From a virus (taxonomy: Duplodnaviria > Heunggongvirae > Uroviricota > Caudoviricetes): a stretch of DNA of 16,592 bases. The first letter of the stretch is position 1, and every line of letters starts with the position of its first letter. The stretch lies in IMG/VR virus record IMGVR_UViG_2531839664_000015, positions 1 to 16,592 of that record; one strand, 5' to 3'. Positions 15,202 to 16,592 of the stretch are shown piece after piece. Below the pieces are notes generated by a model. That model ran no database searches. It had not been told where the DNA came from and saw nothing but the letters and a program-made list of their open reading frames with translations. The position numbers and the translations under genes were made by a program.

Positions 15202-15243
15202 ATGAGCGAAGTAATCATGATTGTCTCTCCCGGCAAATGGGTA
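15202..15243 (+). pseudogene. 5' fragment (14 codons) of a small ORF interrupted by the IS element
   Basis: ATG at 15202 (MSEVIMIVSPGKWV) runs into the IS left end; the same frame continues after the IS (SEEQLIALKGIKKGTLKKAREKSFMEG...) once one copy of the GTA duplication is removed. Confidence 0.5.
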
Positions 15244-15307
15244 TGAGGTAGCCTGAGTTTAACGGACACTCCTTCCTGAAATAGAATGGCATCAGAAGGA
15301 GCTAATA

Positions 15308-15595
15308 ATGAGCAGAAAAACCCAACGTTACTCTAAAGAGTTCAAAGCCGAAGCTGTCAGAACGGTTCTTGAAAATCAACTTTCGATCAGTGAAGGCGCT
15401 TCCCGATTATCTCTTCCTGAAGGCACTTTAGGACAATGGGTTACCGCCGCCAGAAAAGGGCTCGGTACTCCTGGTTCCCGCACGGTGGCTGAACTGGAAT
15501 CTGAAATTCTGCAACTGCGTAAGGCGTTAAATGAAGCTCGCCTTGAGCGAGATATATTAAAAAAGCAACAGCGTATTTTGCACAGGAGTCGCTGA
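15308..15595 (+). CDS. IS3-family transposase OrfA (helix-turn-helix and leucine-zipper region)
   Basis: 95-aa ORF with typical OrfA features (MSRKTQRYSKEFKAEAV..., heptad leucines LESEILQLRKALNEARLERDILKK). The 3' end appears altered by a 1-nt deletion at the frameshift site. Confidence 0.8.
   Translation: MSRKTQRYSKEFKAEAVRTVLENQLSISEGASRLSLPEGTLGQWVTAARKGLGTPGSRTVAELESEILQLRKALNEARLERDILKKQQRILHRSR
15559..15565 (+). other. programmed -1 ribosomal frameshift heptamer A-AAA-AAG of the IS
   Basis: The heptamer sits in the orfA zero frame as ttA-AAA-AAG, the canonical IS3-family slippery motif. Confidence 0.6.
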
Positions 15596-15644
15596 AAAAT
15601 ACGCGTTAATCGAACAATGGCGACAACAATTTCCCATTGAAGCG

Positions 15645-16526
15645 ATGTGTCAGGTATTTGGTGTATCCAGGAGCGGTTATTACAACTGGGTACAGCATGA
15701 ACCCTCAGACAGAAAACAAAGTGATGAGCGGCTAAAACTGGAGATTAAGGTGGCACATATCCGCACTCGCGAAACATATGGAACCCGGCGGCTCCAGACG
15801 GAGCTGGCAGAGAATGGCATCATCGTTGGTCGTGACCGACTGGCACGTCTTCGTAAGGAGCTAAGGCTACGCTGTAAGCAGAAACGCAAGTTCAGAGCGA
15901 CTACGAACTCGAACCACAATCTGCCAGTTGCGCCAAATCTGCTGAACCAGACGTTCGCTCCTACAGCACCAAATCAGGTCTGGGTGGCGGACCTGACGTA
16001 TGTTGCCACACAGGAGGGATGGTTGTACCTCGCTGGCATCAAAGATGTTTATACGTGCGAAATTGTCGGCTACGCCATGGGAGAGCGCATGACAAAAGAG
16101 CTGACAGGTAAAGCTCTGTTTATGGCGCTCAGGAGCCAGCGCCCACCTGCCGGGCTAATCCACCACTCTGATCGAGGTTCACAGTACTGCGCATACGATT
16201 ACCGGGTCATACAGGAGCAGTTTGGTCTGAAAACATCAATGTCGCGTAAAGGTAACTGTTACGACAACGCTCCGATGGAAAGCTTCTGGGGAACGCTGAA
16301 AAATGTGAGCCTGAGCCACTATCGTTTTAATAACCGGGATGAAGCCATCTCAGTAATACGGGAATACATTGAGATTTTCTACAATCGTCAGCGTCGTCAC
16401 TCTCGGTCTGGGGGAATATCTCCCCGGCAGCCTTCAGGGAAAAATATCATCAGATGGCTGCTTAAAAAAAGACAAATGGTAGTGTCCGCTATTGCCAGTA
16501 CACCTCAGTATCCGAAGAGCAGTTAA
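15645..16526 (+). CDS. IS3-family transposase OrfB (DDE integrase core), probably a frameshifted copy
   Basis: DDE triad context (WVADLTYV, HHSDRGSQY, CYDNAPMESFWGTLK). The frame is +1 rather than -1 relative to orfA, and the ORF runs 19 bp past the inferred IS end, while an alternative frame gives a typical ending ...GNISPAAFREKYHQMAA at 16465. Confidence 0.7.
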   Translation: MCQVFGVSRSGYYNWVQHEPSDRKQSDERLKLEIKVAHIRTRETYGTRRLQTELAENGIIVGRDRLARLRKELRLRCKQKRKFRATTNSNHNLPVAPNLLNQTFAPTAPNQVWVADLTYVATQEGWLYLAGIKDVYTCEIVGYAMGERMTKELTGKALFMALRSQRPPAGLIHHSDRGSQYCAYDYRVIQEQFGLKTSMSRKGNCYDNAPMESFWGTLKNVSLSHYRFNNRDEAISVIREYIEIFYNRQRRHSRSGGISPRQPSGKNIIRWLLKKRQMVVSAIASTPQYPKSS

Positions 16527-16592
16527 TTGCGCTGAAAGGAATAAAAAAAGGTACGTTAAAAAAGGCCCGGGAAAAATCGTTTATGGAAGGAA
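16508..16592 (+). pseudogene. 3' continuation of the IS-interrupted ORF (runs off the window end)
   Basis: The frame is continuous with 15202-15243 across the insertion site. Confidence 0.45.

Follow-up and report, generated by a model that had tools for sequence, protein, structure and literature searches.

An IS600 insertion in the excisionase gene of a prophage of the Escherichia coli O121:H19-type lineage

The window analysed in this study is a 16,592-nucleotide stretch of Caudoviricetes DNA (IMG/VR record IMGVR_UViG_2531839664_000015, positions 1-16,592) which, according to an exact-protein look-up, is the entire contig AEZX02000026.1 of the draft assembly GCA_000194395.2. Near its right-hand end, a copy of the insertion sequence (IS) IS600 lies in codon 14 of a prophage excisionase gene (xis), flanked by a 3-bp GTA duplication, and confidence in this insertion is high. 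IS600, a member of the IS3 family, was first described in Shigella sonnei and is abundant in Shigella and in enterohaemorrhagic E. coli (EHEC). The insertion is real but ordinary; the element, its behaviour and the present copy are already known to public annotation (RefSeq and complete genomes).

IS600 and the interrupted excisionase gene

The insertion and its target comprise the following features.

15202-15243, + strand: 5' fragment of xis, codons 1-14 (MSEVIMIVSPGKWV), ended by the TGA of the IS; same start as WP_000005551.1
15241-15243, no strand: left target-site duplication GTA (codon Val14); a single GTA in the empty site
15244-16507, + strand: IS600, 1264 bp; 99.6% identity over 1-1264, boundaries matching an independent copy
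15244-15270, + strand: left terminal inverted repeat (IRL), from a repeat search
16481-16507, + strand: right terminal inverted repeat (IRR), from a repeat search
16508-16510, no strand: right target-site duplication GTA, from the sequence and the empty site
16508-16592, + strand: 3' part of xis, codons 14-42 of 83, running off the contig end; from the sequence and complete genomes

The element, as read from the sequence, begins with TGAGGTAGCC, ends with ACACCTCA and is abutted by GTA on both sides. Its termini are TGAGG...CCTCA, and no inverted repeat of the region is longer than the one formed by its two arms, which are 27 nt long with 70% complementarity. A megablast search of 15244-16507 against plasmids gave 247 records with at least 80% query coverage, the best of which match positions 1-1264 at 99.6% identity and are annotated as 'IS3-like element IS600 family transposase'. 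In a three-way alignment, the likeness to an independent plasmid IS600 begins exactly at TGAGG and ends exactly at CCTCA. Because the similarity of this independent copy starts and stops at the same two positions, the boundaries of the element are not due to chance. The plasmid copy has a 3-bp duplication of its own (GAA), and two more IS600 copies have CCC and CTG. Furthermore, the same-site copy of the complete 2014C-4423 genome is identical to the plasmid copy.

Two open reading frames (ORFs) of 95 and 293 amino acids (aa) were listed on the + strand within the element. Pfam places HTH_Tnp_1 (PF01527, E = 1.3e-20) in the first, orfA, and HTH_21 (PF13276) together with rve (PF00665, E = 3.6e-26) in the second, orfB. 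The attributes of the IS3 family are present, namely a length of about 1.2-1.5 kb with TG...CA imperfect repeats, a duplication of 3-4 bp, and a helix-turn-helix (HTH) orfA followed by a DDE orfB, as is the full-length near-identity to RefSeq-annotated copies that marks IS600. A first-pass annotation, made from the letters of the window alone, had described an IS600-like insertion with TGAGG...CCTCA ends; the compared copies agree with it in termini and length, and on this alignment evidence 15244-16507 is best described as IS600 itself, at full length, and not merely as IS600-like. A sigma-70-like site (TTAACG-17-TAGAAT) lies in the IRL at about 15259-15287, with the identical sequence at 24260-24288 of locus L012 (FWSEC0006); this is no more than a match to the consensus. 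A scan of the right end of the IS for outward promoter-like sites found none, the IRL site being the sole one, and the counts of such sites were no higher than in shuffled sequences.

The frame of the interrupted gene can be followed on both sides of the element. Thirteen codons, counted from the ATG at 15202, lead to the duplicated GTA (Val14), after which the 5' fragment ends at a TGA that the IS supplies with its first three bases; 3' of the IS the frame resumes with GTA TCC GAA GAG.... The transposase and xis are read in the same direction (+ strand). When the IS and one GTA were removed, the resulting 460-nt flank reconstruction gave single-piece matches at 99.8% identity in many O26:H11, O157:H7 and other genomes; those with a place that covers 80% or more of it number at least 2,563. 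The empty site of O26:H11 strain 11368 reads CCCGGCAAATGGGTATCCGAAGAG, with one GTA only, and the RefSeq annotation contains an 83-aa 'excisionase family protein' (WP_000005551.1) that starts at the same ATG as that at 15202 and in the same frame. Since the empty-site sequence and the annotation agree, the duplication of 3 bp is genuine, and so is the restored ORF. The first-pass annotation had proposed this duplication and an ORF restored from 15202 and cut at codon 14, had looked to related genomes for an uninterrupted allele and had expected a rightward extension to identify the gene. Each of these points is borne out: the allele is contiguous in the genomes counted above, and the complete genomes place an excisionase there, followed by an integrase.

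The order of genes at the empty site is exonuclease, 83-aa excisionase, 431-aa site-specific integrase, rspB and rspA. The restored 83-aa protein matches PF06806 (DUF1233, putative excisionase) with E = 1.6e-31 and 108.1 bits (cut-off 22), residues 5-73 spanning profile positions 1-69 of 70, and it matches PHROG 539 'excisionase' with E = 1.4e-35 over positions 1-79 of 80. It also aligns from residue 7 with the solved 'putative excisionase' 2KVV (E = 0.004). The cut after residue 14 thus falls inside the fold and the conserved domain, and the IS strips the remaining 69 codons of their start codon and upstream signals. In complete genomes the 3' part of xis runs 41 codons further than in the window, and the 431-aa tyrosine integrase starts 20 bp later; this spacing is found in O121 and O26 genomes, with rspB beyond the integrase in O26. 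The disrupted gene is accordingly read from its profile matches and its neighbours as the DUF1233/PF06806-type xis of the int-xis module at the end of a lambdoid prophage. The candidates recT and another recombination gene were rejected on the PF06806 and PHROG 539 excisionase matches. The first-pass annotation had placed the insertion where RecT or other early-left functions normally sit; the early-left function stands, RecT does not.

A hairpin with a 10-bp stem (CGCCGGTTGT...GCAACCGGCG) lies at 15142-15174, between the stop of the exonuclease gene and the start of xis, and is no more stable than shuffled controls (z = -0.8).

Distribution in the O121:H19-type lineage and local rearrangements

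The whole window is matched at about 100% identity and in one piece in the O121:H19 chromosomes 16-9255 and FWSEC0006 and in strains 2002-3211 and GTVSS-020. The junctions were followed with 80-mers, consisting of 40 nt of flank and 40 nt of IS on the left and of 35 nt of IS and 45 nt of flank on the right. At each junction, 8 of the 5,426 genomes were crossed in a single piece at 100% identity, and those that are serotyped are all O121-type. The E. coli O121:H19-type lineage carries the prophage, which is one of the ydfJ/rspB-site group. Because the same junctions are present in all eight complete genomes, the insertion predates their divergence, and it is fixed in the lineage, as opposed to new in one strain. 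The insertion had been called recent-looking and precisely delimitable in the first-pass annotation; its boundaries are exact, whereas the sharing of junctions by eight genomes qualifies the first description. The junctions could be used as O121:H19 lineage markers.

The contig is a short draft sequence that ends 85 bases past the IS, which is a multi-copy repeat, and error-like differences occur in this part of it. A repeat misjoined at the contig end, creating false junctions and leaving xis without any insertion, would have these properties. However, eight genomes finished independently contain both junctions with 100% identity, the duplication of 3 bp is perfect, and its target is single-copy in the empty alleles; an assembly artefact at the junctions is effectively refuted and retains almost no probability. 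The coverage of the window stayed below 80% in every record of the phage collection searched, and the 12 best records listed have no match past 15174, into the IS.

The O121 chromosomes hold IS600 at about 20-28 places each. In 2014C-4423 and FWSEC0006, a second IS600 (12169-13433 of locus L002) is found some 3.7 kb further downstream, inversely oriented, in a tail-fibre assembly gene of the neighbouring prophage. In 2014C-3655 the segment between the two copies, which contains the 3' part of xis, int, ynaM, ydfK, pin and a tfa fragment, is inverted (8246-14434 of locus L004), and the flanks are swapped exactly as predicted for IS-by-IS recombination. The second IS600 has no perfect 3-bp duplication in either arrangement, its flanks being GAG and GGG in IS orientation and CCC and CTC on the + strand of the locus. 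Strain 2015C-3107 (NZ_CP027317.1) has the same inversion, but the IS beside the 5' part of xis is gone. The junction there is AAATGGGTA followed directly by TTGCTG, the deletion having taken the IS and one unit of the GGGTA direct repeat (5 bp) that flanked it, and the 5' part of xis is fused to the tfa fragment (...CCCGGCAAATGGGTATTGCTGAACCG...; locus L015, about 7158-7270), so that xis is not restored. This loss fits the excision activity on IS3-family elements reported for the lineage in the searched text of PMC9397093. In 2014C-3599 (NZ_CP027435.1, locus L016), an extra IS600 flanks a truncated integrase and an exonuclease gene without its N-terminus, and the block of exonuclease, 5' part of xis and IS600 is opposite in orientation to the adjacent early genes.

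In FWSEC0006 (locus L012, 27000-34593, and loci L013 and L014), the int end of the prophage abuts the ynaM-ydfK-pin-tfa-stf end of a second prophage, which continues to recE-recT-ralR-rcbA-xisR-intR-ttcA. The arrangement resembles an array of tandem or hybrid type, as would fit the ydfJ/ttcA prophage inversions described in the searched text of PMC8767318. Within a terminase gene, the second prophage also contains an integrase-primase module (L013, about 16.7-29 kb) with the look of a prophage-in-prophage or a satellite insertion.

The searched parts of these two papers describe O121:H19 prophages at ydfJ with inversions between the ydfJ and ttcA prophages (PMC8767318) and IS600 activity with excision of IS600 mediated by the IS-excision enhancer (IEE) in the O121:H19 lineage (PMC9397093); the same parts of both contain no mention of the xis insertion. 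No description of this insertion or of the local inversion between IS600 copies was found in the literature searched.

The transposase frame and the expected effect on excision

The copy of IS600 in the window differs from those in complete genomes in its transposase genes.

15308-15595, + strand: orfA (HTH_Tnp_1), 95 aa as sequenced, with an aberrant C-terminus; A6 in place of A7
15559-15564, + strand: A-run of the programmed -1 frameshift site, A6 here; from the alignment and BLAST differences
15645-16526, + strand: orfB (HTH_21 and rve DDE), 293 aa as sequenced; from the ORF list, Pfam and the alignment

A BLAST comparison of the window with FWSEC0006 over 16,592 bases gave six differences, all within 15197-16472, the first 15,196 bases being identical. 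An A is missing at 15197, outside the IS, another from the A7 run at 15559-15564 and a third at 16472; T replaces A at 16306; and there is an extra G at both 16406 and 16410. Five of the six are one-base insertions or deletions in or beside A or G homopolymer runs, and one is a substitution. As sequenced, A6 puts the frames out of register, so that a -1 shift cannot fuse orfA and orfB into OrfAB; the first-pass annotation had not remarked on this broken frame. The two extra G residues shift the last 20 or so codons of orfB, which exits the IS and continues to 16526; in the reference copies orfB stops at a TAA equivalent to 16463-16465. The same-site copies examined in complete genomes have A7 and carry the PGAP annotation 'programmed frameshift'.

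The frameshifts might be real, in which case the window would hold a decayed, non-autonomous IS600 that makes no OrfAB and is mobile only with transposase supplied by other copies. The sequence as it stands agrees with this: a -1 shift at the A6 run would yield OrfA and no OrfAB, and the extra G residues change the C-terminus of orfB. The 95-aa OrfA with A6 recurs, moreover, in many other assemblies, complete genomes included, and the A6 change alone could be a genuine variant. However, the window and the O121 genomes are otherwise identical, and their six differences are confined to its last 1.4 kb, the other 15.2 kb having none; the chance of such clustering under a uniform spread is about (1396/16592)^6, roughly 4e-7. 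Five are one-base length changes of the homopolymer type noted above, and one lies outside the IS. An intact copy occupies the same site in eight complete genomes, a search of complete E. coli genomes for the exact IS variant of the window gave no 100% match, and the exact-protein look-up found the frameshifted 293-aa orfB recorded for contig AEZX02000026.1 alone. IS600, as a repeat of roughly 20-28 places per O121 chromosome, is of the kind poorly resolved by draft assemblies. Real decay is therefore considered unlikely. Because all six differences cluster in the last 1.4 kb of the contig, those that break the transposase are very probably, taken together, errors of the draft sequence, and the broken transposase of this contig should not be taken as biology.

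In lambda-type modules, Xis directs Int toward excision, and xis and int are transcribed from the early-left operon after induction. Because the 1.26-kb insertion removes the start of xis and sits between the early-left operon and int, Xis would be abolished and read-through into int lowered. With IS600 in place, the remainder of xis would be cut off from the codons of residues 1-14, from its ribosome-binding site and from early-left transcription, so that functional Xis would be missing and int would probably receive less read-through. Xis-dependent excision would suffer, leaving the prophage partly locked in place, and the IS600 copy would, in addition, offer portable homology for recombination with other IS600 copies. 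By analogy with the lambda-type modules, it is somewhat more probable than the contrary that the insertion abolishes or weakens excision of the prophage.

Several points weigh against this expectation. The loss of excision is something that we infer from the lambda-type modules. Each O121 genome has 2-4 places that resemble a xis-int module, and a related Xis might act in trans. In addition, RefSeq contains an 87-aa 'xisR excisionase family protein' (WP_048258936.1), whose start is a CTG in the right end of the IS and which runs into the 3' part of xis (8459-8722 in locus L002 and 25458-25721 in locus L012, corresponding to about 16457 onward in the window); if it were translated, an Xis with a replaced N-terminus would exist. 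The prophage could thus be kept excisable either by this hybrid, which is an open frame annotated as a protein in complete O121 genomes, or by an Xis from another prophage. Such rescue is nevertheless improbable. The hybrid lacks a start codon of the ATG, GTG or TTG type, nothing resembling a Shine-Dalgarno sequence is evident 5' of it, and the right end of the IS offers no outward promoter-like site. It exchanges residues 1-13, part of the conserved domain, and in the window as sequenced its frame is shut by the TAA at 16463-16465. To judge from these features, the 87-aa model is probably a homology-driven annotation artefact, and the gene name xisR is misleading: the genuine Rac XisR of the same genome, encoded beside intR and ttcA by a 216-bp gene (4291-4506 of locus L014), is another protein, of 71 aa.

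It is also conceivable, by analogy with the delayed lactose-utilisation switch at lacZ, that IS600 and the IEE of the lineage could make the insertion a reversible switch, with the prophage locked in most cells and rare, IEE-promoted precise excision of the IS restoring xis and freeing the phage. Loss of IS600 does happen at the present locus, since it was lost there in strain 2015C-3107 (with xis unrestored). A switch of this kind is nonetheless rated as very unlikely.

Neighbouring genes, significance and comparison with known systems

One further gene upstream of the insertion was analysed.

12668-15130, + strand: prophage exonuclease, 820 aa, outside the IS; from Pfam, NCBIfam and annotation

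Its product matches PF06630 (Exonuc_VIII) at residues 57-189 and PF16473 (Rv2179c-like) at residues 639-810. Against the NCBIfam exodeoxyribonuclease VIII model it scores 1001.5, under the cut-off of 1269, and it covers only profile positions 1-603 of 877. Complete genomes annotate the gene as 'exonuclease' or '3'-5' exoribonuclease domain-containing protein'. On these domain matches, 12668-15130 encodes a chimera: its N-terminal region is RecE-type, and an Rv2179c-like DEDD 3'-5' exonuclease domain takes the position of the RecE nuclease domain. The protein has neither the C-terminal RecE nuclease domain nor a score above the NCBIfam equivalog cut-off that would place it with full-length RecE, and it shares with RecE the N-terminal two-thirds alone. 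The label 'recE-like' given to the gene in the first reading of the window holds for that part but not for the C-terminus, which is DEDD-type. There is no recT 3' of the 820-aa gene; a genuine recE-recT-ralR-rcbA-xisR-intR set lies elsewhere in the same genome, beside ttcA. At the other end of the window, two phage-borne tRNA genes are found on the - strand at 22-98 and 199-274, a tRNA-Arg (anticodon tct) and a tRNA with a CAT anticodon, the latter being assigned to Met by ARAGORN and to Ile by RefSeq.

The value of these results lies mostly in annotation: the disrupted gene can be named as a prophage excisionase, and the 'xisR' hybrid of RefSeq can be flagged as a probable artefact. The insertion is a further example, from an EHEC lineage, of an IS that would ground a prophage and that seeds rearrangements around it, and it makes no open question newly testable.

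In its features, the element resembles IS600 in length (1264 bp), in its TG...CA imperfect repeats, in an orfA (HTH) and orfB (rve/DDE) with an A-run frameshift site, and in its 3-bp duplication; unlike the reference copies, it has an A-run one base shorter and two extra G residues in orfB, which are probably sequencing errors. The interrupted gene resembles those of lambda-type Xis/Int modules and of the DUF1233 excisionases in encoding a small protein just 5' of a tyrosine integrase at the early-left end of a prophage, while the protein itself is distinct from both lambda Xis and Rac XisR. Inactivation and rearrangement of prophages by IS elements are known in EHEC, for example with IS629 in O157:H7, and the present locus is similar in that an IS within a prophage gene serves as a site of homology for inversions and deletions. 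A close parallel is the IS600 insertion in lacZ of STEC O121:H19, which causes delayed lactose utilisation and is excised through IEE, as described in the searched text of PMC9397093. The two insertions have in common the IS, the lineage, a 3-nt target and a gene inactivation that is fixed in the lineage. They differ in that the present target is a prophage excisionase, whereas lacZ is a metabolic gene, and in that the one loss observed for the present IS used a 5-bp GGGTA repeat after an inversion, leaving xis unrestored.

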